Assembly: GCA_964349165.1 (NCBI GenBank)
Contig: CAYGFL010000002.1
Span: 1 to 39,975 of the forward strand
DNA from: an uncultured Candidatus Saccharibacteria bacterium
GTDB lineage: Bacteria > Patescibacteriota > Minisyncoccia > Phycocordibacterales > PALSA-1337
DNA: 39,975 nucleotides
Direction: 5' to 3'
Shown here: piece by piece, positions 2,209-30,736 of the stretch
Position numbering within the stretch: the first letter of the stretch is position 1
Layout of the letters: each line of letters begins with the position of its first letter
The notes under the pieces: model-generated
Databases searched by the model: none
Told to the model about the DNA's origin: nothing
What the model saw: only the letters and a program-made list of their open reading frames with translations
Made by a program: the position numbers and the translations under genes

Positions 2209-3060
2209 CTAAGGTTTTTTACCATACACACCATCGAGAAGGTCTGTATCTTTCCCACTTGTCCTAAGTAATTCAATATTTTTATCACGGAGAGCTTTGA
2301 GGACCTCGATACCTTTTTTGTCACGTACATCATTCTGAAAAAATTCTATAAACGCCTCAAAATCCTTGATGAAACATGCCCCGCCTGCCCCTCTTCCGCA
2401 TTTATGAATAGGATTTAAATATGTGGATGACATCATAGGATCATGTTCAAAGGCTTCCTTGAGTACACTCCAATCAGCTCCCAATTTTTGGGTGGCATCG
2501 TAAAGAATATTTGAAAGAATGATCTGAAAATAGCCGTTGATGTTGTGCGAATATTTTATAAGCTCGGCTTCTTCGTACGAGCAGAGCAGAGTATGTGGGG
2601 CCTTAGGTAAAACACTTAGAATTAGTTCCGCTATTTTGAGATTATCTTCTGTACGTTCTACAAGACCTATAATATTTCTCGATGGATGAGATGCGTCATA
2701 AGCGGCTGTATTGATACAGAGAAATTCTGGAGAGTTTACGATAGTAATGGTCGGATTTTCAGCTTGCAATTTACGAACAGTACCCATAAGTGTCGTGGAT
2801 TTTATCACCGCGATCTTACCCTTACCCACGAGAGACAGCACTCCACTCAAAATACTTGCATCAAATCCTTTCGGAGTCGTTGGTGTAGGTACCGCAATAA
2901 ATACAATATCGCACTCACGGATAGTGTCTTTGTTATTTTCGTAAGGTGCCTCTTTGGCATAGCGAGTCACATCGAAACCGCGCTGTTCCATATCATCAGC
3001 ATAATTTTTCCCAATCCACCCCTGACCGATAAAACCGATTTTTGTATTTCTTTTATCCAT
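2209..3060 (-). CDS. UDP-glucose/GDP-mannose dehydrogenase family protein; short form lacking the C-terminal UDP-binding domain
   Basis: KIGFIGQGWIGKN (NAD fold), IVFIAVPTP, VIKSTTLMGT, NSPEFL, and the catalytic-Cys motif GAGGACFIKD. The ATG at 3060 (MDKRNTK) lies 2 nt after the upstream gene's stop. The longer track ORF (to 3237) overlaps that upstream gene and is rejected. Confidence 0.75.
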   Translation of the reverse strand: MDKRNTKIGFIGQGWIGKNYADDMEQRGFDVTRYAKEAPYENNKDTIRECDIVFIAVPTPTTPKGFDASILSGVLSLVGKGKIAVIKSTTLMGTVRKLQAENPTITIVNSPEFLCINTAAYDASHPSRNIIGLVERTEDNLKIAELILSVLPKAPHTLLCSYEEAELIKYSHNINGYFQIILSNILYDATQKLGADWSVLKEAFEHDPMMSSTYLNPIHKCGRGAGGACFIKDFEAFIEFFQNDVRDKKGIEVLKALRDKNIELLRTSGKDTDLLDGVYGKKP

Positions 3061-3062
3061 AA

Positions 3063-4046
3063 TTATGAAGTTATTTCTGTAATTTTCTTTGAAACCTCTC
3101 CCGGTGAATACCCGACTATTTCCGCCCCCACCTCCCTCGCCACCCCGACGTCTGTGGAAACTATTTTCGCACCGACAGCATGAGCTTCGATTATCGACAT
3201 ACCGTATCCCTCGTACCAAGAAGTCACGAGAAAACAATCACAAGTTTTGTAGTATGAGGCCGTATCATTCTGCCAACCTTCGAATATCACTGATCGTTCT
3301 AGACCAAGATTCTTAGTCAAATTTTTTAATTTACTTTCTTCACTTCCAGAACCGACTACTATGAGCCCAACTTTCGGTATTTCTTTCACGATCATTTTAA
3401 AAGATTCTATCGCCATCTCAATATTTTTCTCCTTTTCTAATCTAGAAACCATGAGAATTATTTTTGAAAATTGCGGATATTTCTGATGTAGATCCGTCGT
3501 GACTGGTGCATTTTTTATCTTTTCAACATCGACTGCGATGGGTCGCACTTCTATACGTGATGGTTCTATGAATGTACTTAAATATTCTTGTATACGATAC
3601 GAGACAGCGCGTATATGATCTGCTCTTGGTAGCGCGTATCTCGAAATCAAAGTTCGCACTCTATTTAAAAATGTAAATGTCTGAAAATATGGACTGCCGA
3701 TATCTGTATGGATCTGCAATTCTAGCGAGACTGGCTCACGGTTTTTTATGAGCGCACCAACAAGTCCCGTCTCAAAAGGATCTTGGCAGGTCACATCGCC
3801 AATCTTTCTTTTTTCTACGATGAATCTTCCTAGTCTCAATGCATCGAAAACATATAACCATCGAGAAAGTGATCTCGTAGGATATATAAAAATATTCGAA
3901 CCGAGACTAGTCTCATTAAAATCTCTATTGGAAAATATGATGATATGCACTTCCTCGTATTTTTTTGCATACTCTATCTGCCTCTGCGCCACCGCGCTGT
4001 TTTTATCGAATATATTCCTATCTGTAGATATCATTAGAAGTTTCAT
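3063..4046 (-). CDS. Glycosyltransferase family 4
   Basis: C-terminal GT1 signature SWYEGYGMSIIEAHAVGAKIVSTDVGVAREV, with a GT4-like N-terminal domain. Confidence 0.8.
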   Translation of the reverse strand: MKLLMISTDRNIFDKNSAVAQRQIEYAKKYEEVHIIIFSNRDFNETSLGSNIFIYPTRSLSRWLYVFDALRLGRFIVEKRKIGDVTCQDPFETGLVGALIKNREPVSLELQIHTDIGSPYFQTFTFLNRVRTLISRYALPRADHIRAVSYRIQEYLSTFIEPSRIEVRPIAVDVEKIKNAPVTTDLHQKYPQFSKIILMVSRLEKEKNIEMAIESFKMIVKEIPKVGLIVVGSGSEESKLKNLTKNLGLERSVIFEGWQNDTASYYKTCDCFLVTSWYEGYGMSIIEAHAVGAKIVSTDVGVAREVGAEIVGYSPGEVSKKITEITS

Positions 4047-6275: not shown

Positions 6276-8042
6276 TTAGTCTACCTTGAGAACACCTTTT
6301 AGTACATCTTCAGAAACTTCTTGGGTATCTGCCTTCGAAGTAATATTCGGTGCAGGAGGTTTCTGATCTATTTTTGGTATCTCTTTTCCAGGAGGTCTTT
6401 GATTACCTAGGACAGAAGCCAGAGCATTGCGAAGCTCGTTCACATGCTCTGGTGATGCTTCTTTGGAATTTACTTTAGTCACAACCTTCGGTTCTAGTTT
6501 CGCTAGTGGAACAGTCTCTGGAGGATTTGGTTTAGAAATGACTTTTGGTATTACTGCTTTAAATGGTTGGTGAGTCTGTTGAGGTGGAGGAGATGGTGGT
6601 GGAGGTGTGGGAGGTTTAGGTGTAGGCGAGGTTGCTGGTGCAGGTGTAGATTGAGGAATAGGTTTCGGCTGGGACATCACTTTCAGCTTCGGAGGTACGA
6701 TGATCGGTTCCATCCAGTCAGAAATTGCTTTTTCTACTTCATCGCGAGTATGAGCGAACTGTTGTCGAGACATCGCTATCGCTTCTACTGCACTAGATGT
6801 TTCTGGTTGGGCTATTGGAGGAAGAGTCATTGCGGAAAAAGGTTGCGAACTGATACCATCAATCATGAGTTTTAAGTATATTTGTGTATAACCTAGATTT
6901 ACAATATCTTCTGCTGTAAATTGTGGCATAAATTCTTTTTCCAAAACCTCTGCATCATATGCACCTACACGAAAAACTATCATCGTACCGACGTTACCGA
7001 AGACTGCAGCTCTCACCTCTTCTTCCATCTGCTCTATATATTGATGAGCCATCGTCAGATTTAATTTATATTTTCTCGCTTCAGATAAGATGTCTGCAAA
7101 AGATTCATTGGCAAAAGATTGGAACTCGTCTACAAAAAGATAGAAATTTGGCATTCCTTTGAGTACTCGATCTGGGACATCGGCACGTGATAGAGCTGCA
7201 AGGTAGATCTTTGTGATGAGCATTCCGCCGAGGAGATTGGCGTTTGTCTCTCCTATTCTACCCTTCGACAGGTTGATTATCATTATCTTTTTACTATCCA
7301 TGATTTCACGGATATTAAAAGAAGATTTCGACTGACCTATCATATTTCTGATCAGCGCATTGGCTGTAAATTGCCCTATCTTGTTCTGTATCGCAGGCAC
7401 AGCTTCTGCCGCCATTCTTTCTGTATAGTTTGCAAATTCTTCTACCCAGAAAGATCTCACAGCTGGATCTGTAACATTTGCTACTACTTTTTCACGGAAC
7501 TTTTTATCAGAAAGCATACGATTTACACCGAGTAGAGTAGCTTCTGGATATTCTAGTAGTGCGAGTAGAGTGTTCGTTAAAATATATTCCATTCTGGCAG
7601 ACCATGCATCTTGCCAGATTTTTTTAAAGGTACTCATGAGTCCAGAGACGACGAGATGACGCTTGTCTGGATCGACACTTTCGAGAACGTTAAAAGATAT
7701 CGGGTGATCTGTATCGAACGGTGCAAAATATATTACATCTTTCACCCTCTCCGGTGGGATATATTCTAGTAGAAGATCTGCGGTCTTACCGTGAGGATCG
7801 ATGAATGCCATTCCCTCTCCATTTTTAATATCCTGCACTGCCATGTTTTCAAGAAGAGTGGATTTTCCCATTCCTGTTTTTCCGATGATGTAGACATGGC
7901 GTGTGCGATCTTTTGCCTTAATACCAAAAGTTACTTTTTTATTTCGAGCGTCAGTTTGAGCAAAATATGTGACTCTTTCTTCGTTCATATAAATATGGAG
8001 AATGTTTGGGTATATTTTATCATAGAAAATCCCCAAGTGCAT
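6276..8042 (-). CDS. TraD/TraG/VirD4-like (type IV coupling-protein-like) P-loop NTPase; soluble, with a Pro-rich disordered C-terminal tail
   Basis: Walker A IIGKTGMGKSTLLENM, Walker B FYLFVDEFQSF, and LTMAHQYIEQM. No N-terminal TM helices. The last ~140 aa are low complexity (PKPPTPPPPSPPPQQ). An alternative, probably better, start is the ATG at 7988 (MNEERVTYFAQTD). Confidence 0.75.
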   Translation of the reverse strand: MHLGIFYDKIYPNILHIYMNEERVTYFAQTDARNKKVTFGIKAKDRTRHVYIIGKTGMGKSTLLENMAVQDIKNGEGMAFIDPHGKTADLLLEYIPPERVKDVIYFAPFDTDHPISFNVLESVDPDKRHLVVSGLMSTFKKIWQDAWSARMEYILTNTLLALLEYPEATLLGVNRMLSDKKFREKVVANVTDPAVRSFWVEEFANYTERMAAEAVPAIQNKIGQFTANALIRNMIGQSKSSFNIREIMDSKKIMIINLSKGRIGETNANLLGGMLITKIYLAALSRADVPDRVLKGMPNFYLFVDEFQSFANESFADILSEARKYKLNLTMAHQYIEQMEEEVRAAVFGNVGTMIVFRVGAYDAEVLEKEFMPQFTAEDIVNLGYTQIYLKLMIDGISSQPFSAMTLPPIAQPETSSAVEAIAMSRQQFAHTRDEVEKAISDWMEPIIVPPKLKVMSQPKPIPQSTPAPATSPTPKPPTPPPPSPPPQQTHQPFKAVIPKVISKPNPPETVPLAKLEPKVVTKVNSKEASPEHVNELRNALASVLGNQRPPGKEIPKIDQKPPAPNITSKADTQEVSEDVLKGVLKVD

Positions 8043-8084
8043 TGCACACTCGGGGACTTCGAAACCATTTTGTCATCTTGAATC

Positions 8085-8400
8085 ACTGGGGCCGCGATGA
8101 AGGCCCGCGAGGGAGGAGCATTGGGCGTGACATTCCAGGGGGATAGTCGGGGCGCCAGTGATTGTTGATATCAGCGGAAGGAGGTCGTTGACTGCGACTG
8201 AGCAGGTTGAGAAGATCCGAACCAGAACGAACAGGAGCAATAGTGGAACCTGTGGCTACTTTATTTTTGGCCATACTGTGTGGAGTTGTTGCTGTTGTTT
8301 TCCTACCATGAGAGTGCGTGGATCGCCTACAACAAGTAGACGTACACCTTCATTTACCGTGGGAACAGCACGTTGCTGTCTGGAGTATTATAATACTACG
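8085..8400. ncRNA. Candidate structured non-coding RNA or long leader of unknown class (GC-rich island)
   Basis: The region is markedly more GC-rich than its surroundings. The only ORFs have Arg/Ser/Pro/Cys-rich junk composition. A 9-bp long-range helix (AATCACTGG...CCAGTGATT, about 8083-8091 with 8157-8165) encloses the GGGCC-n8-GGCCC hairpin. More hairpins lie at 8330-8395, and a minus-strand TATAAT sits near 8386-8391. Strand and class are not determined. Confidence 0.3.
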
Positions 8401-8405
8401 ATTAT

Positions 8406-9620
8406 TTAATTTTGCAAGCCCTTGTCCACAGTAGTTGTGGATACGCGATTCAGAGCCGACGCTGTGTACCTATTCGAAGCATTCCACATCATCCAACTAG
8501 TGAGACCTACATCATAAGTTGCAGTGATCTGCGCGCGCACCATCTCTTTAGTGTATGTGGTTCCACCGATACTGAAGTCTTGCAACCATGGTCGTAATTT
8601 CGAAGGAGTTGTACTTGCTGCGATAGCTCTCTCCACACCCTTACCCATAGCATACGAAATAACTTCATATGGTTTCTCTGCCGGCTTTTTGTATCCATTA
8701 AAGTTTGGTGGGTAGTGAGATGGGTAGACCATCGGAGCAACATAGTCGAAATGTGTTAGAGCATCTTCTAGAATCTGCCCGATTCCCAGATCATCTTTAT
8801 TCGAAGTCGTCATACCGAAAAGGTCGGCAGAGATCGGCACACCTTTTGTACGAAAAACATTGTCTATGTATGCAAAAAACTCTTTTAACACTTGCGATTT
8901 TATTTTACCCTGACTATACGGATACGCGATGTCTTCCATATTTCCATCTGATGGAAAACGTATGTAGTCAAAATTCAATTCATCAAATCCTACAGAATAT
9001 GCTTCGTCACCTATAGCAACTAGATAATCCCAGACAGGTTTTGCGCCAGCATCGAGCCAACTTACACCCTTGTGATCTTTCCACACTGCCCCCGCCTTAT
9101 CTTTCACAGCATGTTCTGGATGAGTTTTGACCAAGTATGAGTCTTGAAAAGCAGAGATACGACCTATGACATATATATTTTTATCATGAAGTTCTCCGAT
9201 AAATTCTTTTATATCTGTGATGCGTCTCTCCGATGAACCGAACTTCGCCAATTCCGGATCTTCCACTTCAAAAGCGATCCGACCGGTATAATCTTTTATA
9301 TCTATCACGACAGCATTGAGCTCTGTGTCGTCGATTATTTTGACTAGAGCATCGCGAAGTTTTATATTTCCACCAACCCAACTAGTCATATATAGAGCCT
9401 TGAGAGGTTCAGGAGTCTTCACATGAGTCACGACAAAAGGAGGTGGGCCATCGATGACTGCCGCGAGATGATCTGTTGTAGTGCTGGTATATAGAAGTTG
9501 TTCTCCGTAGGAGATGGCATTATGAATAGATATTCTATTGAAATTAATGATGATAGTGAAAAGAACAAGCACGCCTATTGTACTCCAAGCCAATTTTCTT
9601 ATCGTCCTCCGTATCTTCAT
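8406..9620 (-). CDS. Membrane-anchored putative glycoside hydrolase (DUF4015-type TIM barrel)
   Basis: N-terminal TM (LAWSTIGVLVLFTIIINF). Motifs LNAVVIDIKDYTGRIAF, IYVIGRISAFQD and GFDELNFDYIRFP match the DUF4015 putative glycosyl hydrolase family. Confidence 0.7.
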   Translation of the reverse strand: MKIRRTIRKLAWSTIGVLVLFTIIINFNRISIHNAISYGEQLLYTSTTTDHLAAVIDGPPPFVVTHVKTPEPLKALYMTSWVGGNIKLRDALVKIIDDTELNAVVIDIKDYTGRIAFEVEDPELAKFGSSERRITDIKEFIGELHDKNIYVIGRISAFQDSYLVKTHPEHAVKDKAGAVWKDHKGVSWLDAGAKPVWDYLVAIGDEAYSVGFDELNFDYIRFPSDGNMEDIAYPYSQGKIKSQVLKEFFAYIDNVFRTKGVPISADLFGMTTSNKDDLGIGQILEDALTHFDYVAPMVYPSHYPPNFNGYKKPAEKPYEVISYAMGKGVERAIAASTTPSKLRPWLQDFSIGGTTYTKEMVRAQITATYDVGLTSWMMWNASNRYTASALNRVSTTTVDKGLQN

Positions 9621-9621
9621 G

Positions 9622-9786
9622 CTAATTCAGTTTATTGTCTACATCAGCAGGAAAACGATACGCGATAACTATAATGAGTAGCCCAGATGCAAGAGCGATG
9701 ATCTTGTGCCACATGGACGGCAGTCCGAGAAAAAGAAAGAACATTATCCATATACCGAGCACACACAGCCATTGTCGTTTTGACAT
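9622..9786 (-). CDS. Small (54 aa) two-helix membrane protein, hypothetical
   Basis: Own translation: MSKRQWLCVLGIWIMFFLFLGLPSMWHKIIALASGLLIIVIAYRFPADVDNKLN*. It fills the gap between rsmI and the hydrolase, with its stop 1 nt before the next ATG. It is below the ORF-track size cutoff. Confidence 0.4.
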   Translation of the reverse strand: MSKRQWLCVLGIWIMFFLFLGLPSMWHKIIALASGLLIIVIAYRFPADVDNKLN

Positions 9787-9817
9787 ATATTATTTAATTT
9801 AAAAAATTACCTCACCA

Positions 9818-10501
9818 TTATATCACAGAGACGATGACCACAAACTCTCCTTTCTGTTTTTCTGGAGTTGTCGTGAGTCTTTCAAGGACTTCTTCTGCGC
9901 TACCTTGTATCACTTCCTCATAAATTTTCGTTATCTCTCTGACGATCGTGACCTTTTTTTCTGTTTGATTTAAATGTTCCTTCAGAGACTCTAGAGTTTT
10001 CATAATCCTATGTGTTGATTCGTAGAAAACCATAGTCCTTTCTGATATCGCGATCTCTTTAAAAAGAGTTTCTCTTCCCTTCTTGTGTGGCATGAAACCT
10101 AGAAAAATAAATTCATGAGTAGGAACTCCCGCGATGGAAAGTGCGGATGTCAGAGCAGATGCTCCAGGCACAGACTCGATTTTCAGATCTGGATATTCTT
10201 GTCTGATTTTAGAAATCAAAAGTGAACCTGGATCAGAGATGCCAGGAGTTCCAGCATCAGTGACTAGTGCAATGTTTTTTCCTTTGGCAATTTCTTCGAG
10301 AATTATTTCAACCTTCGCCTCACCGCTCTGGGCATGATAGCTCATGGTCTGAGTAGAGATAGCATGCTTTTCGAAAAGTTTGCGGGTGACTCTAGTATCC
10401 TCGCACAGCACCAGATCCACTTCTTTGAGAATACGAATAGCCCGGAGAGTGATGTCTTCGAGGTTGCCGATAGGTGTAGAAATCACATAAAATATACTCA
10501 T
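9818..10501 (-). CDS. rsmI: 16S rRNA (cytidine1402-2'-O)-methyltransferase RsmI
   Basis: IFYVISTPIGNLEDITLRAIRILKEVDLVLCEDTRVTRKL and DAGTPGISDPG (tetrapyrrole-methylase fold, RsmI family). Confidence 0.9.
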   Translation of the reverse strand: MSIFYVISTPIGNLEDITLRAIRILKEVDLVLCEDTRVTRKLFEKHAISTQTMSYHAQSGEAKVEIILEEIAKGKNIALVTDAGTPGISDPGSLLISKIRQEYPDLKIESVPGASALTSALSIAGVPTHEFIFLGFMPHKKGRETLFKEIAISERTMVFYESTHRIMKTLESLKEHLNQTEKKVTIVREITKIYEEVIQGSAEEVLERLTTTPEKQKGEFVVIVSVI

Positions 10502-10529: not shown

Positions 10530-11633
10530 ATGGCGAAAAACTCAATAATCTACATCACAAAAGATAGAGAAAGGGCAGAAGGAATGCTCGAAAGTTCGAC
10601 ATATTCTATCCTATCCGGCGATGGGTCATCAGACACATTGGAGCTTCTTTCTGGTGTTAAAAATATCGGAGAATCCTCAATCTTGGTATTTAAAAATACA
10701 AAACAGATAGAGGAAATTGCTAAAAAAAATAACTGGAATCTTTTGAATCCCAGCGCCGAACTCGCAGAAAAGATTGAGAACAAAATAACTCAAGTAGAGT
10801 GGTTGGGCGAACTCGCGAGACTCCTCCCTCCTCACTCTGTCATGTTAACCAAGGATATAAAAAATATTCCTTGCGTAGTCCAGTGGGCTCATAGTCATAC
10901 CGGAGAAGGAACACTGCATATTCAGAACGAAAATTCTTTAAAAGAAATTCAGGCAAGGTTTCCGGATCGTGAAGCTCGGGTGACCGAATATATAAAAGGA
11001 CCAATGTTCACTGTAAATATTGTAGTGGCGAAAGACAAGATTCTTGTGGGTAATATCAGTTATCAGATCACAGGTCTTGCTCCTTTCACAGACAATCCAT
11101 TTAGCACTATAGGTAATGACTGGAGTGTGCCTCCTACTATTCTTACAGAGAGTCATCTCGTAGATTTTCATAATATATCTAGTCTCATTGGAAAAAAATT
11201 GCAGGACGATGGTTGGAAAGGACTCTTCGGTATCGATGTTATATATGATGAAGAAAGAGATAAGTTATTTTTAATTGAAATAAATGCTCGACAACCCGCA
11301 TCTACAACTTATGAATCTCAATTGCAGATGAAAGCTCGAGAAAAAGGAGTTGCGGGTATGACTACATTCGAAGCCCATTTGTCTGCACTTACAGACAAAG
11401 ATGTTGATTCTCTTATTGTTATCAACGATGGTGCACAGATAATACAGAGAGTTACTGCTAGTGTAAAAAAAATAAATACCGAATCTTTACAGAAAGCTGG
11501 TTACAAAGTTATGGAATATAAAAATACAAAATTAAATAGTGACTTAGTTCGTATTCAAAGTGAGAGAGGGATAATGGAGACGCATAATAAGTTTAATGGG
11601 AGAGGAAAGGAAATAGAAAAAGATATTATATGA
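10530..11633 (+). CDS. ATP-grasp domain ligase of unknown specificity
   Basis: C-terminal ATP-grasp core GLFGIDVIYDEERDKLFLIEINARQPAST, with a pre-ATP-grasp N-domain. No clear Ddl, RimK or PurK subfamily signature is visible by eye. Confidence 0.7.
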   Translation: MAKNSIIYITKDRERAEGMLESSTYSILSGDGSSDTLELLSGVKNIGESSILVFKNTKQIEEIAKKNNWNLLNPSAELAEKIENKITQVEWLGELARLLPPHSVMLTKDIKNIPCVVQWAHSHTGEGTLHIQNENSLKEIQARFPDREARVTEYIKGPMFTVNIVVAKDKILVGNISYQITGLAPFTDNPFSTIGNDWSVPPTILTESHLVDFHNISSLIGKKLQDDGWKGLFGIDVIYDEERDKLFLIEINARQPASTTYESQLQMKAREKGVAGMTTFEAHLSALTDKDVDSLIVINDGAQIIQRVTASVKKINTESLQKAGYKVMEYKNTKLNSDLVRIQSERGIMETHNKFNGRGKEIEKDII

Positions 11634-12391
11634 AACAAATGCCAACCAAACTCCTTTCAGAAAAAGCTCTCTCTGTCATAGGTCAGTACATGAATTTCCA
11701 CATTGGTGGAGCTGTTTGCTCTATTCCCTACTACAACAATCGTCATTTACGGGCACGTGCGAAACTCAAAGTCCAGATTGGAAAAGGTAGTCCAGAAAAT
11801 ATTCAGGACGAAGTGGAAAATACTGCGCTTTTACAGAAAATAAATTTGAAAGCTATCGACTCTGTAAGTCTCAAGAAATTTCTTGTAGAAAATAATATCG
11901 GCATCGACTGCTCTGGGCTCGCATACTACATTCTTAAATCAGAATATGAACATCTCAAACTCTCATTCCCTTTTCAAAAAGGATTACTCGGAAAACTGCG
12001 TGCCAGATTTCGTCCGATAGAAAATGCTGACGTGGCTACACTTGCTCATGATAAAAATAGTATGACGATCGATCTTAAAAATATTTCTCAAGGAGATATG
12101 ATCACCATGCTCGGTGGATTGGAAAATAAAGATAGAGACCATGTTCTGCTAATTCACAAAGTTGATTATACAGACTCGACACCATCTACTATCTACTACA
12201 CACACACCATCGCATGGCCGACTGATGGAGAATATGGACATGGTGTGAGACAAGGAATAATAAAAATCACTGATTTAGAAAAATCTCTCACAGAACAAGA
12301 ATGGATCGAGGTAGAAAAGACAGCAGAGGAAAACTATACTCTCCTGCGAGCCCTGAAATCCAAGACTGAGATTAGGCGCTTGAGGCTGTAA
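11630..12391 (+). CDS. NlpC/P60 (C40)-like cysteine peptidase/amidase-fold protein
   Basis: IGIDCSGLAYYIL (catalytic Cys motif), GDMITMLGG...DHVLLIHKV (His motif) and a later His in YYTHTIAW. ATGA overlap with the ATP-grasp gene. Confidence 0.5.
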   Translation: MKQMPTKLLSEKALSVIGQYMNFHIGGAVCSIPYYNNRHLRARAKLKVQIGKGSPENIQDEVENTALLQKINLKAIDSVSLKKFLVENNIGIDCSGLAYYILKSEYEHLKLSFPFQKGLLGKLRARFRPIENADVATLAHDKNSMTIDLKNISQGDMITMLGGLENKDRDHVLLIHKVDYTDSTPSTIYYTHTIAWPTDGEYGHGVRQGIIKITDLEKSLTEQEWIEVEKTAEENYTLLRALKSKTEIRRLRL

Positions 12392-12421: not shown

Positions 12422-13549
12422 ATGATAAGCATACTAGAAGGAACGGCTGATTTGGGCTATATCCTCGGCTTTTCTGTTTTCGCCTGTGCAGTCGCTTTCC
12501 TATGGTCACCTCTGCTCATTCACCTTTTGAACCGTTTCCATATTATGAAAACGGCCAAGGTCGAACTAGCTTCCATAGAGTCTCGTAAGGGAAAAGACAA
12601 CACCCCTATCATGGGAGGTCTCCTCATCATCGTAACTGTAGGAGTTATCAGTCTTCTCTTCAATTGGTCTCGTAGCTTCACATGGGTGCCACTCGGAGTT
12701 ATGTTTCTAGCCGCAATACTTGGTGGACTGGATGACCTTTTAAATATTTTTGGAGCAGAGAGACGATCTAGAAAACTGACTCATATTATTACACTTATAA
12801 AAGTCCACAAGGATTGGAAGATGCGTCTCTGGTATATAGTCACCTTTCCTTGGACTATATTTAAAAGAACTTCGGTATGGCTTGGTTCTAGACCTGGAAA
12901 AGGTATCCATGTGCACGAGAAACTACTCCTACAGTTCGTAGCGGGCACCATCACAGCTTGGTGGGTGTATAGCAAGCTGGGTCAAGCTTGGCACTACATT
13001 TACCTTCCTTTTGGTATTGATATTTTTGCAGGCTGGTTCATTATCCCGATTATTATTTTCATAGTTATGTTCACAGCGAATGCCGTCAACATCGCAGACG
13101 GTATGGATGGTCTGGCTGGAGGCATGCTCATCACGACATTCAGTGCTCTCACACTATTGAGTTGGATAAATGGATTCGGAGAGATTTCTGTACTCAATGC
13201 TACAGCTGTAGGTGCTCTAGTCGCCTATACATATTTCAATATCAAACCCGCGCGGTTCATGATGGGAGACGTGGGATCTCTCGGCCTCGGTGCTCTATTT
13301 GCAGTGAACACTCTCGCCATCGGTGAGATCGGTTCGATCTTTTTCCTTGGTTTTCTTTTTTATATAGAAGCTGTAACTGTGGTTATACAAGTCCTCGGTC
13401 GCTATATCCTAGGTCGTCGCATATTCCGAATGGCGCCACTGCATCATCATTTTGAACTCATAGGTTGGAGTGAAGAGAAGACAATCATGCGTTTTTGGAT
13501 TGTTCATTTCATTTTCGTGGTCTTCGGTATCTGGTTAGCTCTACACTAA
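12422..13549 (+). CDS. mraY: Phospho-N-acetylmuramoyl-pentapeptide transferase MraY
   Basis: NAVNIADGMDGLAGG, MGDVGSLGLGA and APLHHHFE motifs, with about 10 TM helices. Confidence 0.92.
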   Translation: MISILEGTADLGYILGFSVFACAVAFLWSPLLIHLLNRFHIMKTAKVELASIESRKGKDNTPIMGGLLIIVTVGVISLLFNWSRSFTWVPLGVMFLAAILGGLDDLLNIFGAERRSRKLTHIITLIKVHKDWKMRLWYIVTFPWTIFKRTSVWLGSRPGKGIHVHEKLLLQFVAGTITAWWVYSKLGQAWHYIYLPFGIDIFAGWFIIPIIIFIVMFTANAVNIADGMDGLAGGMLITTFSALTLLSWINGFGEISVLNATAVGALVAYTYFNIKPARFMMGDVGSLGLGALFAVNTLAIGEIGSIFFLGFLFYIEAVTVVIQVLGRYILGRRIFRMAPLHHHFELIGWSEEKTIMRFWIVHFIFVVFGIWLALH

Positions 13550-13550: not shown

Positions 13551-14183
13551 ATGGAATATCTTCATTGGAAAGAAGAAAAGGTTACAGATTTTTCTGAATC
13601 AAATATTTCGGAGATGTATGGTAATGGATTTGTTTTTACGAGAATAGATAAAGGGAAGATGCATCAGACGAGAAGTGTGCGAATCGATCTTTCCAAATTT
13701 GAATTATCTAGTGAGAATAGAAGGGTGTTAAAGAAAACCGAAAGTATAGAACTCAAAGAAAACAAAATCCCCTTTTCCGAATACACTTGGGAGATAGGTA
13801 AAATCGCAAAAGATTTTTATGATAAAAAAGCCGGAGGCGCTTTTTCTGCAAACAAAATAAAAGAAATAATAACTACTGATCATAATTTCAATACTTTATT
13901 TAATTTTTTAGATCTAGGATACGCGATATGTTATATGAATAAAAATATTCTGCACTACTCCTACCCTTTCTATGATTTAGAAAAGTCTCCGAAGGACATA
14001 GGGCTCGGCATGATGATCAAGGCTGTGGTGTGGGCAAAAGATAAAGGATTAAAATATGTTTATCTCGGTTCATTACAGAGACCTGGTGATGTGTATAAGT
14101 TGCAGTTCGAAGGGTTGGAGTGGTTCGATGGGAAGGAGTGGAGTAAAGATTTGGAAAAGGTTAAAATAATACTTCATGAATAA
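13551..14183 (+). CDS. Arginyl/leucyl-tRNA-protein transferase-like protein (ATE/Bpt family, GNAT/Fem-like fold), lacking the Cys-rich N-domain
   Basis: GFVFTR...RIDLSKFELSSENRRVLKK, ILHYSYPFYDLEKSPKDIGLGMMIKAVVWAKDKGLKYVYLGS and YKLQFEGLEWFDGKEW align by eye to Bpt/ATE_C motifs (SAVYTFYDP..SLG...YLGYWI...YK..F.P.E.L..G.W). It starts 1 nt after the mraY stop and overlaps mpl by 8 nt. Confidence 0.6.
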   Translation: MEYLHWKEEKVTDFSESNISEMYGNGFVFTRIDKGKMHQTRSVRIDLSKFELSSENRRVLKKTESIELKENKIPFSEYTWEIGKIAKDFYDKKAGGAFSANKIKEIITTDHNFNTLFNFLDLGYAICYMNKNILHYSYPFYDLEKSPKDIGLGMMIKAVVWAKDKGLKYVYLGSLQRPGDVYKLQFEGLEWFDGKEWSKDLEKVKIILHE

Positions 14184-15531
14184 CCAGCAACATATCCACA
14201 TCGTAGGCATTTGTGGCGTAGCCACTAGCGCCCTGGCTATCGCCTTCAAGAATAGAGGTTGGAAGGTCACAGGAAGTGATAAGGGTTTCTTCCCTCCTGT
14301 CTCTACAGAACTAGAGAGAAATGATATTGCTTTCTATGCTGGTTGGCATCCAGAAAAAATGGGTATGCCAGACTATGTCATAGTCGGAACTGCGTCAGGT
14401 TCTACGAATCCAGAAACTCAATATGCTAGAGAAAAAAATATCCCAATATACTCTTTTGCAGAAGCCATCGGTGAATTCTTGGTGAAAGAAAATTCTATAG
14501 TCTGCGTTGGTACATGGGGAAAAACGAGTTCCTCTGCGCTTCTTTCATATATTCTAGAAAAAGCAGATTTCAATCCATCATATATGTTCGGCGGTGTTTC
14601 TCTTTCACACGAATCGTCTGGAAAAATAACAGATAGTAAGTGGAGTGTCTGTGAAGGTGATGAATACAAAAGTGGTCCGACAGATCCGACTCCAAAGTTT
14701 CAGTACTACAAGCCCACTCACCTATTGCTCACAGCCGTGTCATGGGATCATGCCGATCTTTACCCAACAGAAGAATCTTTTATAAAGACTTTCGAAAAAC
14801 TTGTCGCTTCTGTCGGTTTCATTGTCGCTTGTAGAGATAATGAGAAAGTTGTGCAAGTGGTCGGTGATAAAAAAGTGGTATGGTATGGTAAAGAAAATGC
14901 GGACTATATATACAGTGACATCATACAGACAAAAGACGGATTGGATTTTAAGATAAATGATATAAAAATACATTCACCTATGATCGGCACTTTTCAAGCC
15001 GAAAATATTACTGGTTGTTTCGCCATAGCTCATACGCTAGGTATAGATGCAAAAATAATTGTTGAGGCTGTTGCAGGATTCAAAGGTTTGAAGCGTCGTC
15101 TAGAGAAACGTCTGGATGGAGATATAGTTGTCTTCGATGACATTGCCCACTCTCCAGAAAAAGCCTCTTTTGTATTAAAAAATCTAAGGTCTATCTATAC
15201 CGGAAAGATCATTACAATTTTCGAACCGAATATCGGTGGTCGTAGTCGCGAATCGATAGGTAAATATGATAATGCTTTCAGAGACTCTGACACTGTATTT
15301 ATAGCTAGACTTACAAAATTAAAAATAGGAGAGAGTGACAGACCAATGGAAGGCAACGAACTAACAGAAATTATTGCAAAAACTCATTCGGATGTGAGAT
15401 ACATCGAAGATGATGATAGACTTGTCCAAGAAATAAAAGCCATGGTAAAAGACGGCGATGTCGTAGCTTTCCTTGGCTCCCACGGATTCCGTGGAATGAT
15501 AGAGGCGGTGATTACTTCCCTTCGTCGATAA
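14176..15531 (+). CDS. mpl: Mur ligase, Mpl-type (UDP-MurNAc:L-Ala-gamma-D-Glu-meso-DAP ligase-like) or divergent MurC
   Basis: IHIVGICGVATSALAIAF..GWKVTGSDKGFFPPVSTEL (Mpl-type GICG/YPPMS pattern), P-loop GTWGKTSSSA, and EGDEYKSGPTDPTPKFQYYKPTHLLLTAVSWDHADLY (compare Mpl ADEYDxAFFDKRSKFxHY). Confidence 0.8.
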   Translation: MNNQQHIHIVGICGVATSALAIAFKNRGWKVTGSDKGFFPPVSTELERNDIAFYAGWHPEKMGMPDYVIVGTASGSTNPETQYAREKNIPIYSFAEAIGEFLVKENSIVCVGTWGKTSSSALLSYILEKADFNPSYMFGGVSLSHESSGKITDSKWSVCEGDEYKSGPTDPTPKFQYYKPTHLLLTAVSWDHADLYPTEESFIKTFEKLVASVGFIVACRDNEKVVQVVGDKKVVWYGKENADYIYSDIIQTKDGLDFKINDIKIHSPMIGTFQAENITGCFAIAHTLGIDAKIIVEAVAGFKGLKRRLEKRLDGDIVVFDDIAHSPEKASFVLKNLRSIYTGKIITIFEPNIGGRSRESIGKYDNAFRDSDTVFIARLTKLKIGESDRPMEGNELTEIIAKTHSDVRYIEDDDRLVQEIKAMVKDGDVVAFLGSHGFRGMIEAVITSLRR

Positions 15532-15726: not shown

Positions 15727-16590
15727 ATGATAACCCCACACGAGAAACATGACGAATTAGCCAAGGAACTGGGTCTTTCTTCTCCTGTCTTCTTTAAAAG
15801 AGAGGATCTGCACCCATATGGGTCTCATAAGGGCAGATCGATCCCACATATGATAGATGAGAAGATTGCAAAAGGTTGCAAGCATTTTGTCATCTCTTCT
15901 TCAGGCAATGCCGCCTTGGCTGCTGGACTCTATGTTGAAAAGTTGAACTCCGAAGGTAAAAATATCACTTTAGAAATATTCGCTGGAAAAAACATATCTC
16001 CGAAAAAACTTGAAAAACTAGAGGCTCTAAAAAGTGAAAATATTCTAGTATCTTTACAAGACAGACCTCTGCAAGCCCTCTTCATGAAGACTCAAGATCC
16101 TTCGATCGAGAGTCTACGTCAGTCCAATGATGATATCGCTCTTGTAGGATACGAATCTCTTGCAAAAGAACTCCTCGAGATCCCAGATCTCTCTGCAGTC
16201 TTCATGGGGACTTCCTCTGGTACCACGGCGCAGGCCATCGCAGAATATTTTAGAAAAAATGATAAAAAAATAGAAGTCCATATTGTCCAGACTTCGTCTT
16301 GCCACTCGATAGCCGATGCTTTCGTCGATAATTATAGTAGTGAAGAGAAATCGATCGCAGACGCCATAGTCGATCAGACAGCGTTACGCAAAGATACTTT
16401 GGTACCCCTCATAACCTCTGGTTGGATCGCCTCGAATGAACAGATAATATCTGCGCAAGAAATAGTTCAAAAAAATACAGATCTTGATATATCGACCAAT
16501 AGCGCCCTCTCAGTTGCTGGACTTATGCAAGCGGTATATACAGGTAAAACATGGAGAGGGCCTCTCGTCTGCATGATCTGTGGGGACTAG
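15727..16590 (+). CDS. PLP-dependent enzyme, fold type II (Trp-synthase-beta/threonine-synthase-like superfamily)
   Basis: REDLHPYGSHKGRS (PLP-lysine motif, compare xPTGSFKDRG), ISSSGNAALAAGLY and GTSSGTTAQ (phosphate-binding loop). Confidence 0.65.
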   Translation: MITPHEKHDELAKELGLSSPVFFKREDLHPYGSHKGRSIPHMIDEKIAKGCKHFVISSSGNAALAAGLYVEKLNSEGKNITLEIFAGKNISPKKLEKLEALKSENILVSLQDRPLQALFMKTQDPSIESLRQSNDDIALVGYESLAKELLEIPDLSAVFMGTSSGTTAQAIAEYFRKNDKKIEVHIVQTSSCHSIADAFVDNYSSEEKSIADAIVDQTALRKDTLVPLITSGWIASNEQIISAQEIVQKNTDLDISTNSALSVAGLMQAVYTGKTWRGPLVCMICGD

Positions 16591-17867
16591 AGAGACCTCA
16601 CCGCTTTTACGAACTTCTCACCTCGATCTTTCCTTGAGATATGTATACCCACAGCTTCGAAAGCTGGGCTGAAGATTACCTTATCACCTTTTCTACTTTC
16701 TCCTTTAGACATGATGACCGCATCTTCGAGTGTAGGTGCTTGCAAGAAACGTATACCTCTCATCGTTTCTAGACTCTCACGCAATCCTAGACTACCAGTG
16801 CCAGGTAAAAGAATCACAGAAGAAACGTATCTGGAAAGTAGAGAGATGAGCTCAGAATAATCGTGTTTTGTATATGCCCCACCCAAGATGAGCACAATAT
16901 TTTTCGCATCAGCACTTTGTAATGTCTGAAGTGCAAAAACTGTAGCAAGAGGTGTCACAGAAGCTGAGTCATTGTAAAATTCTACTCCATCTATTTTCTT
17001 TACTAGTTCCTGATGACTACGTAGTCCTGTAAAATTATCGATTATACCCTGCGCCGTTTCTACAGGTACTTTGAAAAGCTCTGCAGTCTGGATCGCTAGA
17101 GCTTGGTTGGTAGAACGGGTCCTGAGCATTTTAGCCTTGGTGGTGAAATTCGATTTAGATTTTATATTATCGATCACAATATCTGTAGCCACGATGAAGT
17201 TGTTGTAAGTCTGATGTTCTAGGATAGCAAAAGCTGTCGGTACACCCTCCATAGCAGATGATGTGAGAGACGTGATCACTGCGACATGTGGACTGATACG
17301 TGCCTCGTGATATTCACCCAGCATTTCCTCTGTGATGCGAGCGAGGATAACATCTCCTTGTTTTATTTTTTTTAGATGAGTCAGAGCTCCATTCGGAAGA
17401 TCTGGATCGATAAAATATAGACCTTGAGCTTCATAATCCTTGAAAGATTGCTTCAGTACAGCGTACAGCATATGTGCGACTGTACTCTTGCCACATTGAC
17501 CCATGATGCCGATGAGAGTGATCGGTGGAGCTAATTTTAAAAAAAGTACATCTGGATATTCTATACGTATGCCTGCATTATAGACTTTCTTGAGAAATAG
17601 AGAATCTTTTGGAATTTCTTGTGACAGAATGATCAATTCTGATTGCAATAGACTCTCACCTGGCGGTGTACCCAATTCATATCTTGTAAGCCCCGCAGTC
17701 CTAAGCACAGAGAGTGGCCCCTGCATCCTATTTTCACTACGTATATCATATAGAGAAACAAGAGCTCCTGTCTTCAAGAGAAATTTAATGTCTGCTACCA
17801 TTTCGCCATGTGGACCTAGTCCCACTACAGCTATATGCTTACCCTTGAAGAAAGTCTTGTAGTTCAC
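16587..17867 (-). CDS. murD: UDP-N-acetylmuramoylalanine-D-glutamate ligase MurD
   Basis: GKHIAVVGLGPHGEMVA (N-terminal Rossmann), IGIMGQCGKSTVAHML (P-loop) and the Mur ligase C-domain. GTG start at 17867, overlapping the upstream stop (GTGA). Confidence 0.85.
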   Translation of the reverse strand: MNYKTFFKGKHIAVVGLGPHGEMVADIKFLLKTGALVSLYDIRSENRMQGPLSVLRTAGLTRYELGTPPGESLLQSELIILSQEIPKDSLFLKKVYNAGIRIEYPDVLFLKLAPPITLIGIMGQCGKSTVAHMLYAVLKQSFKDYEAQGLYFIDPDLPNGALTHLKKIKQGDVILARITEEMLGEYHEARISPHVAVITSLTSSAMEGVPTAFAILEHQTYNNFIVATDIVIDNIKSKSNFTTKAKMLRTRSTNQALAIQTAELFKVPVETAQGIIDNFTGLRSHQELVKKIDGVEFYNDSASVTPLATVFALQTLQSADAKNIVLILGGAYTKHDYSELISLLSRYVSSVILLPGTGSLGLRESLETMRGIRFLQAPTLEDAVIMSKGESRKGDKVIFSPAFEAVGIHISRKDRGEKFVKAVRSL

Positions 17868-18178
17868 TCTCTCATTATATCTGCCTTTGGAGCATTTTCA
17901 ATGAGGTCCTTCACTTTTATCATTTCTTGTAGAAGAGCTTGTAGTTTCAGAGATTCTGCATTATCAATATTATTGTCGATGAAATCTCCCAGTTTTTTCA
18001 TAAAAAGTTGGTGTATGTCATCTAGATATTGTTCTAGAATAATAATATTTCCTCTACCCACAGTGCCACTGTCTCGTACAGTGAAAAATGCAGGTGGTCT
18101 GCGTATACCTTCGAAGTACAGACAGTCGTCTGATATGACCCCTTCGATCGAAGGAGATGTGATCGTGTATGTATTCAT
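17864..18178 (-). CDS. Hypothetical protein (104 aa), no recognisable family
   Basis: Clean ATG ORF packed between radC and murD, with a GTGA overlap with murD. The N-terminal half looks beta-rich and the C-terminal half helical and acidic. Confidence 0.5.
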   Translation of the reverse strand: MNTYTITSPSIEGVISDDCLYFEGIRRPPAFFTVRDSGTVGRGNIIILEQYLDDIHQLFMKKLGDFIDNNIDNAESLKLQALLQEMIKVKDLIENAPKADIMRE

Positions 18179-24108: not shown

Positions 24109-24621
24109 TTAGTATTTATACGAGTAGCGGATGGCACGCTCGACTCTCTTGGGGCTTGCAACATTGCATGTCTTATTGACGCTATCCCAACCAGTATTGT
24201 ATCCACGAGATTCGATAGTTTTTGTAGTCTCACCGCTTGTTGTAATTTCTGTGACAGTCACTCTTGCACAAGAGTTCCCTTCACTACCAAACTTGGCATG
24301 AAAGATAAAAGTTCCACCAGCAGGAGGGTGTGTTGTTGAGAAAGCCATGGAAGGATTGCAACTTAGCAGGTTTGTTTTATCGGTACTTATATTGAAAGCA
24401 TCGATATTATCGCCTAGCAACGCACATTCGAATCCCCCGTCGGCAGCGTAGAATGCAAGAGATGAATCTCGCGCAGAAGTAGAGAGTAAAAATTCTTTTT
24501 TACTAATATTTAATATTGAAATACCGATACTTAATACAAGTGAAGATACTAGCACAGCGAATAGTAGTGTGTATCCCCTATTTGTTTTTATATCTTTATT
24601 TTTGTACATTGTATATAACAT
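24109..24621 (-). CDS. PilX-like pilus-associated protein (PilX_N-type hydrophobic N-terminus; no E5)
   Basis: NRGYTLLFAVLVSSLVLSIGISILNISKKEFLLSTSARDSSLAFYAADGGFECAL resembles the PilX N-domain. It is the last gene of the minor-pilin block. Confidence 0.55.
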   Translation of the reverse strand: MLYTMYKNKDIKTNRGYTLLFAVLVSSLVLSIGISILNISKKEFLLSTSARDSSLAFYAADGGFECALLGDNIDAFNISTDKTNLLSCNPSMAFSTTHPPAGGTFIFHAKFGSEGNSCARVTVTEITTSGETTKTIESRGYNTGWDSVNKTCNVASPKRVERAIRYSYKY

Positions 24622-25147
24622 TTTCGTATTTTACCTGATTTGTTACAGTTCCATTTTTCCATTCGACAATTACGACGATAGTTGCATCCTTGGAAATGTC
24701 ACCACCTGGGATATAGTAGAAATATCTGGAAAATTTTGTGAGTTCTGTACCACTGCTATCATCGCTGTATCCACCACTACTCTTATATATCTTACAAGTA
24801 GTAGATGGTACACATGGAGAGAGACCATTCGTTGGTAAAGTTGTGCCCGGAGCAGTGCTAGGATTTCCTGTTAAAGTATTCACAGAACATTTCTGGCCAT
24901 CCGAACATAGATTTATTCCATCAGTCCAATCTCTCCCCTCTATGATATTTATATCCCTAACATTCTTCAGATACTCCATCGCATCTTGAGCTAGGTACGA
25001 AGCTGTGACTTGGTCGTGAGCCAGAAGAGCAGATCTCAAACCTTTGTGAGCGATAGTCAATGGTCCTGCGATAGAGATCATGAGAATACCGATAGCGACA
25101 AGCGTCTCTACTATAGTGAATCCTTTTTGTGTGATGTGTTTTGACAT
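24596..25147 (-). CDS. Minor pilin, PilV-like (prepilin-type N-terminal cleavage/methylation domain)
   Basis: The class III signal QKGFTIVETLVAIGILMISIAG has the G at -1 and E at +5. Confidence 0.7.
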   Translation of the reverse strand: MSKHITQKGFTIVETLVAIGILMISIAGPLTIAHKGLRSALLAHDQVTASYLAQDAMEYLKNVRDINIIEGRDWTDGINLCSDGQKCSVNTLTGNPSTAPGTTLPTNGLSPCVPSTTCKIYKSSGGYSDDSSGTELTKFSRYFYYIPGGDISKDATIVVIVEWKNGTVTNQVKYENVIYNVQK

Positions 25148-25152
25148 ATTAT

Positions 25153-25875
25153 TTAATCTCTAATTCGCTGTGATACAGTAGTCTGCATATCGAACAAAGT
25201 TTTCGACTTTTCTTTTACACCAGCAGAGCCGACGAAATGGAATTGGGCGTAGGATGGATATTTTTCAGTAGGGCTTTTTTCACCAGTCACGACGCGCACG
25301 GTAGCTTTGGAGAAGGTGATGAAGGAGTCGAATTTGCCTGCATTAACGTTAATTGAATCGTCCGAATCATCCTTAGTAGATATTAGAGTTGCAAATGACA
25401 TACTATTAGATTCACAATCTTCTTGTTCTGCTTTTCGAATATCGGTCCCTGTAAAATCATAAGCTTTGGCTAAATTACACGTTTCATCTTGAGTATCTTT
25501 TGATGTATCAGAAGATATAAAAGCTATAGTCCATGGCCCTCCTGTAGTAGTACCACACCCTTGAGGTGGGAATAATTTATATCTAATCAAATTACCGTCA
25601 TCATCATTAATAGGGTTGAAATGATCTTCGAGACTGGCAGTACCAGTCAAACAATAATAATTTGATCCTACTCTCATTTCACGAGACATTGCCTCAAGTG
25701 CAAAGTTTAAATTATTTATAGAAGTCTCTAATGTGTGGGCTTTTTTATTTGCATCTATTATTTTCAATAGAGCTCCGACCGCAACCAGAGCAACAATAGT
25801 AAATAGACCTATGGAAACAATCATTTCTACTAGAGTGAATCCTTTTTGAGATGAATTATGTGAAGAAAGATGCAT
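25153..25875 (-). CDS. Minor pilin, PilW-like (prepilin-type N-terminus)
   Basis: SQKGFTLVEMIVSIGLFTIVALVAVGAL. The track start (25899) is a TTG; the ATG at 25875 (MHLSSHNSSQKGFTLVEM) avoids overlap with the upstream gene. Confidence 0.7.
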   Translation of the reverse strand: MHLSSHNSSQKGFTLVEMIVSIGLFTIVALVAVGALLKIIDANKKAHTLETSINNLNFALEAMSREMRVGSNYYCLTGTASLEDHFNPINDDDGNLIRYKLFPPQGCGTTTGGPWTIAFISSDTSKDTQDETCNLAKAYDFTGTDIRKAEQEDCESNSMSFATLISTKDDSDDSINVNAGKFDSFITFSKATVRVVTGEKSPTEKYPSYAQFHFVGSAGVKEKSKTLFDMQTTVSQRIRD

Positions 25876-25882
25876 TTTATTT

Positions 25883-26461
25883 TTAATTAACAACACCAAT
25901 TTGTCCTGTATTTCTCACGTAAATCTTTTTTGTCGAACCATCTGAAGTCTTGAGTTCAATTGTAGCAACGTCGTTATTAACATCATTATGTATCATGGCT
26001 TTCGGATCAGGGCGCTTGAATACCAGATCGAGAGTTGACTTAGAAGTCGCAAGTACTGTTAACTCACTCACCACACTCCCCCTCTTTATATTATACGTCG
26101 ACATTATTACATCTTCAGTGTCATATGAATTAGCAACTGTACCAACATCCGCAAATAAAATTATCTGTGTATTCTTCGCTGGTGAACCTGATGCAGTTTT
26201 ATCAAAATGCACTCCGAAAGAACCTTCGAACTCATCTGCCGTTCTCGACTTACTCTTCACATTCAACCCATACGACTGTGCTGTGCGTATAGTGAGCGCC
26301 ACATCATATGCCAAGTTGGTAAGCAATATTCCCTGATTGAAACTTCCATATTTCGATAGCAACAAAGCAGTCATGAAAACGAAAATACTAACAGAAACCA
26401 GTAGCTCCACCAGAGTGAACCCTTTTCCACTATCTATTTTCTTTTTAAAAGAAGAGTACAT
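25883..26461 (-). CDS. Minor pilin, GspH/FimT-like (prepilin-type N-terminus)
   Basis: GKGFTLVELLVSVSIFVFMTALLL. The track start (26482) is a TTG; the ATG is at 26461 (MYSSFKKKIDSGKGFTLVEL). Confidence 0.7.
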   Translation of the reverse strand: MYSSFKKKIDSGKGFTLVELLVSVSIFVFMTALLLSKYGSFNQGILLTNLAYDVALTIRTAQSYGLNVKSKSRTADEFEGSFGVHFDKTASGSPAKNTQIILFADVGTVANSYDTEDVIMSTYNIKRGSVVSELTVLATSKSTLDLVFKRPDPKAMIHNDVNNDVATIELKTSDGSTKKIYVRNTGQIGVVN

Positions 26462-27194: not shown

Positions 27195-27206
27195 TTAGTT
27201 TTTGAT

Positions 27207-27752: not shown

Positions 27753-27774
27753 AGTATGGAATAATTATAACACG

Positions 27775-28350: not shown

Positions 28351-28393
28351 TATTATTATAAGTGTACCATGTAACTCCCCTTCTCCTCAAAAC

Positions 28394-28426
28394 AAAACCT
28401 CCCCGGGAGGGGGGAGGTTTTGAGAT
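28394..28426 (-). terminator. Strong intrinsic terminator after the major pilin genes; palindromic, so usable on both strands
   Basis: AAAACCTCCCC-(6 nt loop)-GGGGAGGTTTT forms an 11-bp stem and is followed on the minus strand by GTTTTG. It lies about 15 nt downstream of the stop at 28441. Confidence 0.8.
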
Positions 28427-28440
28427 AGGTATGTGATCTA

Positions 28441-28935: not shown

Positions 28936-28949
28936 ACTAAACTAAATAA

Positions 28950-29408: not shown

Positions 29409-29458
29409 ACGAATAAATTAACTTAATAAAAACAATTAATAATTAAACTTATAGACGT

Positions 29459-29469: not shown

Positions 29470-29486
29470 ATCCCTAGGAAATAGGT

Positions 29487-30730: not shown

Positions 30731-30736
30731 ATTGTT

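Follow-up and report, generated by a model that had tools for sequence, protein, structure and literature searches.

A divergent, ATE/Bpt-like aminoacyl-tRNA transferase homologue linked to murC is a candidate cell wall precursor enzyme of Patescibacteria

Why should a gene resembling the aminoacyl-tRNA-protein transferases ATE and Bpt lie among genes for peptidoglycan synthesis? The question is raised by a 39,975-nucleotide stretch of DNA (contig CAYGFL010000002.1, hereafter the window) from an uncultured Candidatus Saccharibacteria bacterium, in which such an open reading frame (ORF) is wedged between mraY and a gene for a Mur ligase. We refer to the ORF and its product as X, to related loci by L numbers and to proteins by P numbers. 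Patescibacteria account for a large part of bacterial diversity, and we know of no experimental work on their peptidoglycan chemistry; a conserved, uncharacterised enzyme amid mur and division and cell wall (dcw) genes points to an unrecognised step in wall precursor synthesis. The analysis described here leads us to regard X as very probably an enzyme with aminoacyl-tRNA-transferase chemistry, and as one that likely acts in the synthesis of wall precursors. The gene occupies the following position:

13551..14183, plus strand: X, an ATE/Bpt-like, aminoacyl-tRNA-transferase-like gene, Cys-less at the ATE_N positions (from the ORF, NCBIfam Bpt models, an AlphaFold2 (AF2) model and Foldseek)

The ORF encodes a product of 210 amino acids and is as tightly packed as an earlier note on this DNA had described. 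Its coordinates confirm that a single nucleotide separates it from the mraY stop (13549) and that its 3' end overlaps the start of the ligase gene at 14176 by 8 nt, ATGAATAA; X is translationally coupled to both neighbours in the window. The public gene call (P0001, 189 amino acids) begins at Met22, that is at 13614. Since residues 1–21 are conserved among more than 100 homologues of approximately 210 amino acids, this call is too short and the true start is 13551. Scans of the operon with Rfam and for promoters and terminators revealed no RNA element and no internal terminator.

We addressed whether the resemblance to ATE/Bpt is genuine by comparing X with curated models. Six NCBIfam arginyltransferase models (Bpt, PRK01305) match residues 38–200 with E values of 2e-10 to 1.5e-4, so that the similarity claimed in the earlier note is significant. 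The score of X against these models is approximately 40 bits and does not reach the curated equivalog cutoffs of 170–358; all family members, including the distant P0280, P0309 and P0363, score 35–50 bits. The Pfam ATE_C model matches residues 125–175 of X weakly (E 9e-4, 20.2 bits, below the gathering score of 25), and relatives of X pass that gathering score. Neither FemAB (PF02388) nor Leu_Phe_trans (Aat, PF03588) gave a Pfam match to X at E<=1, and Leu_Phe_trans was also absent from the 50 Foldseek matches listed. ATE_N was found by Pfam neither in X nor in the relatives scanned. PDB sequence searches with the X protein and with the family profile returned no ATE1; that match came from the fold search alone. 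The motifs quoted in the earlier note are all present in X, and most of their residues are invariant or near-invariant in a family alignment of 33 sequences. We conclude that X is a genuine but very divergent homologue of Bpt/ATE1.

The AF2 model of X, built on the family alignment, is of high confidence (predicted local distance difference test (pLDDT) 92.9, predicted template modelling score (pTM) 0.90). When it was compared with the PDB using Foldseek, the top matches were human, yeast and Kluyveromyces (K.) lactis ATE1 (8tzv, 7wg4, 7tif, 8j6v), with template modelling (TM) scores of 0.66–0.70, an E value of 2e-7 and a probability of 1.0. They rank ahead of the aminoacyl-phosphatidylglycerol synthases (aaPGS) A-PGS and L-PGS with MprF, Weissella FemX (TM 0.46–0.48) and Sbb17/Sba18, all of which are aminoacyl-tRNA transferases. 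The earlier note had expected the duplicated GNAT fold of the Fem proteins; the model instead has a single GNAT core and a small N-terminal subdomain.

Residues of X were mapped onto PDB-derived sequences of human, yeast and K. lactis ATE1, using alignments that are weak but mutually consistent. Three features emerge:

13626..13736, plus strand: degenerate ATE_N remnant, G26–K62 (alignments to ATE1 sequences)
13887..14126, plus strand: GNAT-type catalytic core, approximately residues 113–192, with HYSYPFYD, G151, YLGSLQR and EWF (ATE_C match, invariant columns, secondary structure)
14094..14099, plus strand: Y182–K183 dyad, aligned with Tyr303–Lys304 of K. lactis Ate1 (klAte1) and Lys305 of FemX

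In the remnant, GFVFTR...QTRSVRIDLSKFELSSENRR of X aligns with GFRRSG...CCxxYTIRxxxxxFxxSKxxKK. X had been described as lacking the Cys-rich ATE_N region, and this holds for the cysteine signature: the four ATE_N cysteine positions are non-Cys and the sole Cys of X is C127. The second half of ATE_N does survive, in a degenerate, Cys-free form. It includes S54–K62 (SENRRVLKK), helical in the model, which aligns with the basic tRNA-docking alpha3 helix of ATE1. The blocks conserved in the 33-sequence alignment are FTR 29–31, QTR 39–41, SENRR 54–58, HYxYPFY 135–141, YLGSLQR 171–177, YKLQ 182–185 and EWF 190–192. HYSYPFYD corresponds to the 'VYLYYDP' strand of ATE1, and the profile segment 'YLGTcYge..kalYK' aligned to 'YYMGFYIHScpKMKYK' of the human protein. 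The dyad is invariant, and it is kept together with the SENRR helix and HYxYPFYD in every subgroup.

According to PMC9351520, Tyr303–Lys304 of klAte1 is essential (the K304A mutant is inactive), Arg80 is essential for reading the acidic N-terminal acceptor, the alpha3 helix docks tRNA and Lys305 is the FemX counterpart of Lys304. The equivalent of Arg80, the first Arg of GFRRSG, is Val in X (GFVFTR) and Leu in all other subgroups (GF/YLP..). The position of the Arg-binding Glu277 of ATE1 would be occupied by Ala in X, as far as a weak alignment indicates. Because the dyad and basic helix are retained while the cysteines and Arg80 are gone, the donor and catalytic half of the enzyme appears to have been kept and the half that reads a protein acceptor to have changed.

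More than 1850 proteins of approximately 210 amino acids match the X family at E<1e-3. When 1.84 billion representatives were searched exhaustively with the profile, just 419 clusters were recovered, so the family forms a tight clade and stays separate from the bulk of canonical Bpt. A sister subfamily of 250–270 amino acids, with 3936 proteins at E<1e-5, shares this signature and is longer by 16 residues at the N-terminus. Its members are named 'arginyl-tRNA--protein-N-Asp/Glu arginylyltransferase' (JGI), 'GNAT family N-acetyltransferase' (NCBI) or 'hypothetical protein'. They include cultured Bacteroidota, and we therefore rejected the idea of a family confined to the candidate phyla radiation (CPR). 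Many taxon labels of metagenome-assembled genomes ('Saccharibacteria', 'Gammaproteobacteria', 'Roseobacteraceae', 'Acetobacteraceae') look unreliable.

The genes around X in the window are as follows:

10530..11633, plus strand: ATP-grasp enzyme, first gene of the operon and clade-specific partner (Pfam ATP-grasp_3, E 2e-6)
11630..12391, plus strand: NlpC/P60-like protein, clade-specific partner (weak match, Pfam NLPC_P60, E 0.011)
12422..13549, plus strand: mraY (TIGR00445, E 1e-48; Glycos_transf_4)
14176..15531, plus strand: MurC-type Mur ligase (TIGR01082 murC 241 bits, mpl 193 bits)
15727..16590, plus strand: pyridoxal phosphate (PLP) fold-type II enzyme downstream of MurC, clade-specific partner (Pfam PALP, E 1.5e-33)
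16587..17867, minus strand: MurD-like ligase, convergent with the operon (TIGR01087 murD, E 5e-37; MurD-like_N)

We next asked how widely this arrangement is conserved, using a census of 67 species-level genomes with proteins 49–73% identical to X, in which ratios count the loci with enough flanking sequence. Within the clade of the window, MurC lies downstream of X, in the same orientation, in 54 of 55 loci and MraY upstream in 56/57. The order ATP-grasp, NlpC-like, MraY, X, MurC, PLP enzyme and reverse-strand MurD is mostly kept. The lone exception is a Dojkabacteria locus in which X is convergent with MurE-MurA-FtsI. At 24 of 54 related loci the X/MurC junction holds a heterogeneous insert of approximately 0.5–3 kb (among them L003, L008, L010–L014, L020, L029, L048, L052 and L054), with contents that include RelE/ParE-type toxin-antitoxin pairs, reverse-transcriptase-like ORFs and small membrane proteins. 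Since the flanking order is kept around the inserts, the junction looks like an insertion hot spot.

Loci of the distant subfamilies were located by single-protein scans and contig look-ups. MurE-X-MurC occurs within the complete dcw clusters of L071, L076, L079 (Microgenomates) and L080 (Shapirobacteria), the X-MurC pair stands alone in Jorgensenbacteria, and the reversed order MurC-X is found in L078, L082, L083 (Yanofskybacteria), L086, L088 and L089. In one protein, P0267, present in three independent assemblies, X is joined to MurC through a Pro/Ser linker, in the context MraZ-RsmH-FtsL-FtsI-MurE-[X::MurC]-MurA. Six Spirosomataceae (Bacteroidota) genomes (L087, L090–L093, L101), among whose cultured carriers are Marinilongibacter aquaticus and Lacihabitans soyangensis, have the order FtsW-MurG-X-(FtsQ-like)-FtsA-FtsZ. 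Here X occupies the usual murC slot of a split dcw cluster, with no murC within the locus. In one Saprospiraceae locus X is divergent from mreB...pbp2, and in two other loci a Mur ligase lies just upstream. The neighbourhood census thus bears out a mur linkage that is near-universal across deeply divergent relatives and includes one MurC fusion. A different fusion was seen in L074, where P0250 (7001–9430, 809 amino acids) joins an X-like domain to PPDK_N and PEP-utilizers domains, a phosphoenolpyruvate (PEP)-synthase-like ATP-grasp phosphotransfer module; 4.4 kb upstream of it is a Mur ligase.

The partner ligase had been labelled Mpl-type in the earlier note, and this assignment was rejected. 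The window ligase scores higher against MurC than against Mpl (241 versus 193 bits). MurC also leads, by 3–59 bits, for eight further MurC-type ligases from CPR, of which six, the fused one among them, are ATE-linked, and the X-linked ligase of L076 is the sole MurC candidate of a complete dcw cluster. The window enzyme and the other eight alike fall below both the MurC and the Mpl equivalog cutoffs. Judged by sequence, the ligase is of MurC type, albeit divergent.

Because features of protein recognition have been lost and X is adjacent or fused to MurC, it probably adds an amino acid to a building block of the wall. We picture X as a soluble enzyme of Bpt/ATE1 descent that would have been re-purposed from protein N-termini to peptidoglycan precursors and would work alongside MurC. 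The acceptor end of a charged tRNA would be docked by the basic helix S54–K62 and the GNAT loop around G151. An amine of the precursor, either UDP-N-acetylmuramic acid (UDP-MurNAc)-peptide or a lipid-linked form, would then attack the aminoacyl ester; the likeliest candidate is the amino group left free on the diamino acid at position 3. Y182–K183 may stabilise the tetrahedral intermediate, and the product would be a stem peptide with one extra residue, a Fem-like branch. Walls of the LL-diaminopimelic acid (DAP)-Gly type (A3-gamma) illustrate that DAP-type stems can be branched. Use of aminoacyl-tRNA, the identity of the acceptor and that of the amino acid are all inferences. We put forward only tentatively, at a little under even chances, that X is a Fem-like brancher of the stem peptide derived from the ATE/Bpt lineage. 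Of the earlier note's proposal of a Fem analogue recruited from the ATE family, the recruitment is favoured by homology, mur linkage, the fusion and the loss of Arg80, while the branching of stem peptides is what we infer. In a still bolder variant, X would use fragments derived from the host to rebuild stem peptides, which the MurC/Mpl-like ligase would then take up as substrates.

Several observations weigh against a Fem-like brancher. X is tightly linked to MurC, whose product lacks a free amine, and not to MurE or MurF, whose products carry one. Among the carriers are Gram-negative Bacteroidota, in which one would not expect branched stems. The MurEs that adjoin X in L068 and L076 carry DDPR/EDPR in place of DNPR and keep the DAP-type Arg. 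This Arg and the Gram-negative carriers make a classical Lys-type interpeptide bridge a less than obvious product. In Catalinimonas and three other Bacteroidota-side loci the neighbours of X are unrelated. A search with the X::MurC fusion gave no second fusion lineage, and the suggestion of a recurrent 'Rosetta-stone' fusion was rejected, as X::MurC is confined to a single lineage. Finally, by sequence the profile of the distant subfamily (A2) matches the GNAT acetyltransferase 3d8p (E 9e-6) ahead of ATE1, a preference that leaves room for an acyl-CoA donor.

A further candidate, that a Lys-type stem implies a classical Fem bridge, was found to be unsupported, both MurEs examined (L068, L076) having the DAP-type Arg. 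These two MurE-like ligases (L076 5769–7004, L068 6673–8004) are short, at 411–443 amino acids, and have no Pfam N-terminal Mur_ligase domain.

X might instead still modify protein N-termini, as a Bpt-like enzyme of N-degron or maturation function whose substrates are cell wall or division proteins, or its position at MurC might be inherited operon packing. This would agree with its nearest relatives by sequence and structure, Bpt and ATE1, all of which modify protein N-termini, and with those Bacteroidota members that have no cell wall neighbours. We nevertheless consider it unlikely. Every member has lost both the ATE_N Cys cluster and the counterpart of Arg80, scores lie far under the Bpt equivalog cutoffs, and adjacency to MurC outlasts order inversions, the break-up of the cluster (the Jorgensenbacteria pair) and fusion. 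No Clp, Aat or ClpS was noted among the labelled neighbours, which cover part of each neighbourhood and were mostly sought as homologues of the window's cell wall genes, with no search run for ClpS, ClpA or Aat.

The choice of partner could also be read as a sign of salvage. X would then transfer a residue from aminoacyl-tRNA to the free alpha-amine of an amino acid or peptide that the cell has scavenged (L-Ala to host gamma-D-Glu-DAP, for instance), and the MurC/Mpl-family ligase would attach the resulting peptide to UDP-MurNAc. CPR bacteria are scavengers that depend on a host, as is generally known; the partner is specifically a MurC/Mpl-family ligase and not MurE or MurF; and these ligases are divergent, scoring under both the MurC and the Mpl cutoffs. 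ATE/Bpt acceptors are, moreover, N-terminal Glu/Asp according to PMC9351520. It can be seen, however, that the ligases score MurC above Mpl every time and that the Arg which reads an acidic acceptor has been lost. The same clusters also encode MurD, MurE, MurF and Ddl, so the stepwise route seems complete. This scheme is improbable in our view.

Much the same low standing is given to the reading in the NCBI name 'GNAT family N-acetyltransferase', namely an acyl-CoA-dependent acyltransferase acting on a wall precursor. Pfam Acetyltransf_6 and Acetyltransf_1 match relatives of X, the A2 profile finds 3d8p, and residues 148–153 (K148-D-I-G-L-G153) form a K-x-x-G-x-G-like loop. When set against the Q/R-x-x-G-x-G/A CoA loop, only K148 and G151 are conserved and the second Gly is not. 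The ATE1 fold is matched over the full length of X, the N-terminal subdomain included, and the invariant SENRR helix and YK dyad are hallmarks of aminoacyl-tRNA transferases. Least probable of all is an MprF-like O-aminoacylase that forms an ester, and not a peptide bond, with a hydroxyl on a membrane lipid, a wall polymer or a lipid-linked intermediate, for although the synthase domains of A-PGS, L-PGS and MprF are the second-best structural matches and the window X directly follows mraY, a membrane step, X has no membrane domain, is fused to the cytoplasmic MurC in one lineage and is matched clearly better over its full length by ATE1.

How, then, does X as a candidate precursor-modifying transferase relate to known systems? 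Bpt is the nearest family by sequence, with a similar size, a GNAT core, the SxxRR basic helix and the YK dyad, whereas X lacks the ATE_N Cys motif and the GFRRSG Arg and is embedded in mur/dcw genes. Eukaryotic ATE1 is the best fold match and shares the Tyr-Lys dyad, the alpha3 helix and a 'YYDP'-like strand; at approximately 500 amino acids, against 210, it differs in having Zn/Fe-S cysteines and a C-terminal domain that X is without. FemX, FemA, FemB and MurM (PF02388) resemble X in the GNAT catalytic domain, in the Lys at the place of FemX K305 and in their association with cell wall genes, and by analogy X may share their role, the aminoacyl-tRNA-dependent addition of residues to a peptidoglycan precursor. 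They are double-GNAT proteins whereas X is single, X gives no FemAB sequence match and TM scores of only 0.46–0.48 to FemX, and they form a separate branch of the superfamily. The relationship between ATE1 and Fem within one superfamily was already known, according to an earlier study cited in PMC9351520. The aaPGS/MprF synthase domains (A-PGS 4v35, L-PGS 4v36) are likewise aminoacyl-tRNA-dependent GNAT enzymes with non-protein acceptors, as predicted for X, but they are double-GNAT, are attached to a flippase, form esters on lipid head groups and have no sequence similarity to X. Peptide synthases of the Sbb17/Sba18/Orf11 type, from natural-product pathways, are small, soluble, aminoacyl-tRNA-dependent GNAT proteins, as X is predicted to be, and act on small-molecule amines; they are of Fem and not ATE type and belong to secondary-metabolite clusters, not dcw.

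Literature searches, and relevant passages of papers on dcw evolution, the structure of ATE1, CPR protein families, aminoacyl-tRNA-dependent enzymes and the lipocone superfamily, yielded no description of the X family or of its MurC linkage, and a role in peptidoglycan synthesis seems not to have been reported before for an ATE/Bpt-lineage enzyme. Gene context and structure support this predicted role well. X would be the first enzyme of this lineage with a non-protein acceptor, and a tRNA-dependent stem-peptide transferase conserved in CPR dcw clusters, a claim for which we judge the chances to be slightly worse than even. If it is correct, Patescibacteria and some Spirosomataceae build a modified or branched wall with an enzyme independent of the Fem family, and the substrate range of the ATE/Bpt lineage extends past proteins. 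If X aminoacylates the precursor, tRNA-dependent wall branching would have been invented twice in one superfamily, in Fem and in ATE/Bpt. The automatic names of the X family (arginylyltransferase, GNAT N-acetyltransferase, hypothetical) would then need correction. The culturable Spirosomataceae with X in the dcw cluster make the prediction directly testable.

Returning to the window, three poorly characterised genes, for the ATP-grasp enzyme, the NlpC/P60-like protein and the PLP enzyme, are co-conserved with MraY/X/MurC in approximately 50 species loci and are absent from distant CPR dcw clusters that bear an ordinary Ddl. The ATP-grasp enzyme matches the biotin-carboxylase-like PRK06524, an archaeal pseudomurein Ddl-like protein and PylC weakly, and a PDB sequence search with it gave no match. 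The NlpC/P60-like gene is found across related loci on either strand. For the PLP enzyme only weak equivalog and PDB matches were obtained (Ser/Thr dehydratase, Thr synthase, SbnA-like). This trio may supply a non-canonical D-amino acid or dipeptide. The MurD-like ligase is co-conserved in closer relatives.

Between MurD and RadC, a 104-amino-acid ORF (17864–18178, minus strand) is shared by most related loci at 33–56% identity and has no Pfam or NCBIfam match. Upstream of the cell wall operon, at 6276–10501 on the minus strand, lie genes for a VirD4/TrwB-like type IV coupling protein, a DUF4015 putative glycosyl hydrolase and RsmI; the same three precede the MurC/X pair in the distant CPR loci L078 and L089, where the operon is rearranged. 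A large type IV pilus cluster (24109–36758, minus strand) contains at least seven prepilin-like genes with N-terminal methylation motifs, a PilD-type A24 peptidase, PilC (T2SSF), two T2SSE ATPases, PilM and a stand-alone response regulator. A UDP-glucose dehydrogenase-like gene with a TTG start (2209–3237, minus strand) overlaps a GT4 glycosyltransferase gene (3063–4046, minus strand) by approximately 175 nt, and because of this overlap the start of the dehydrogenase is probably mis-assigned.

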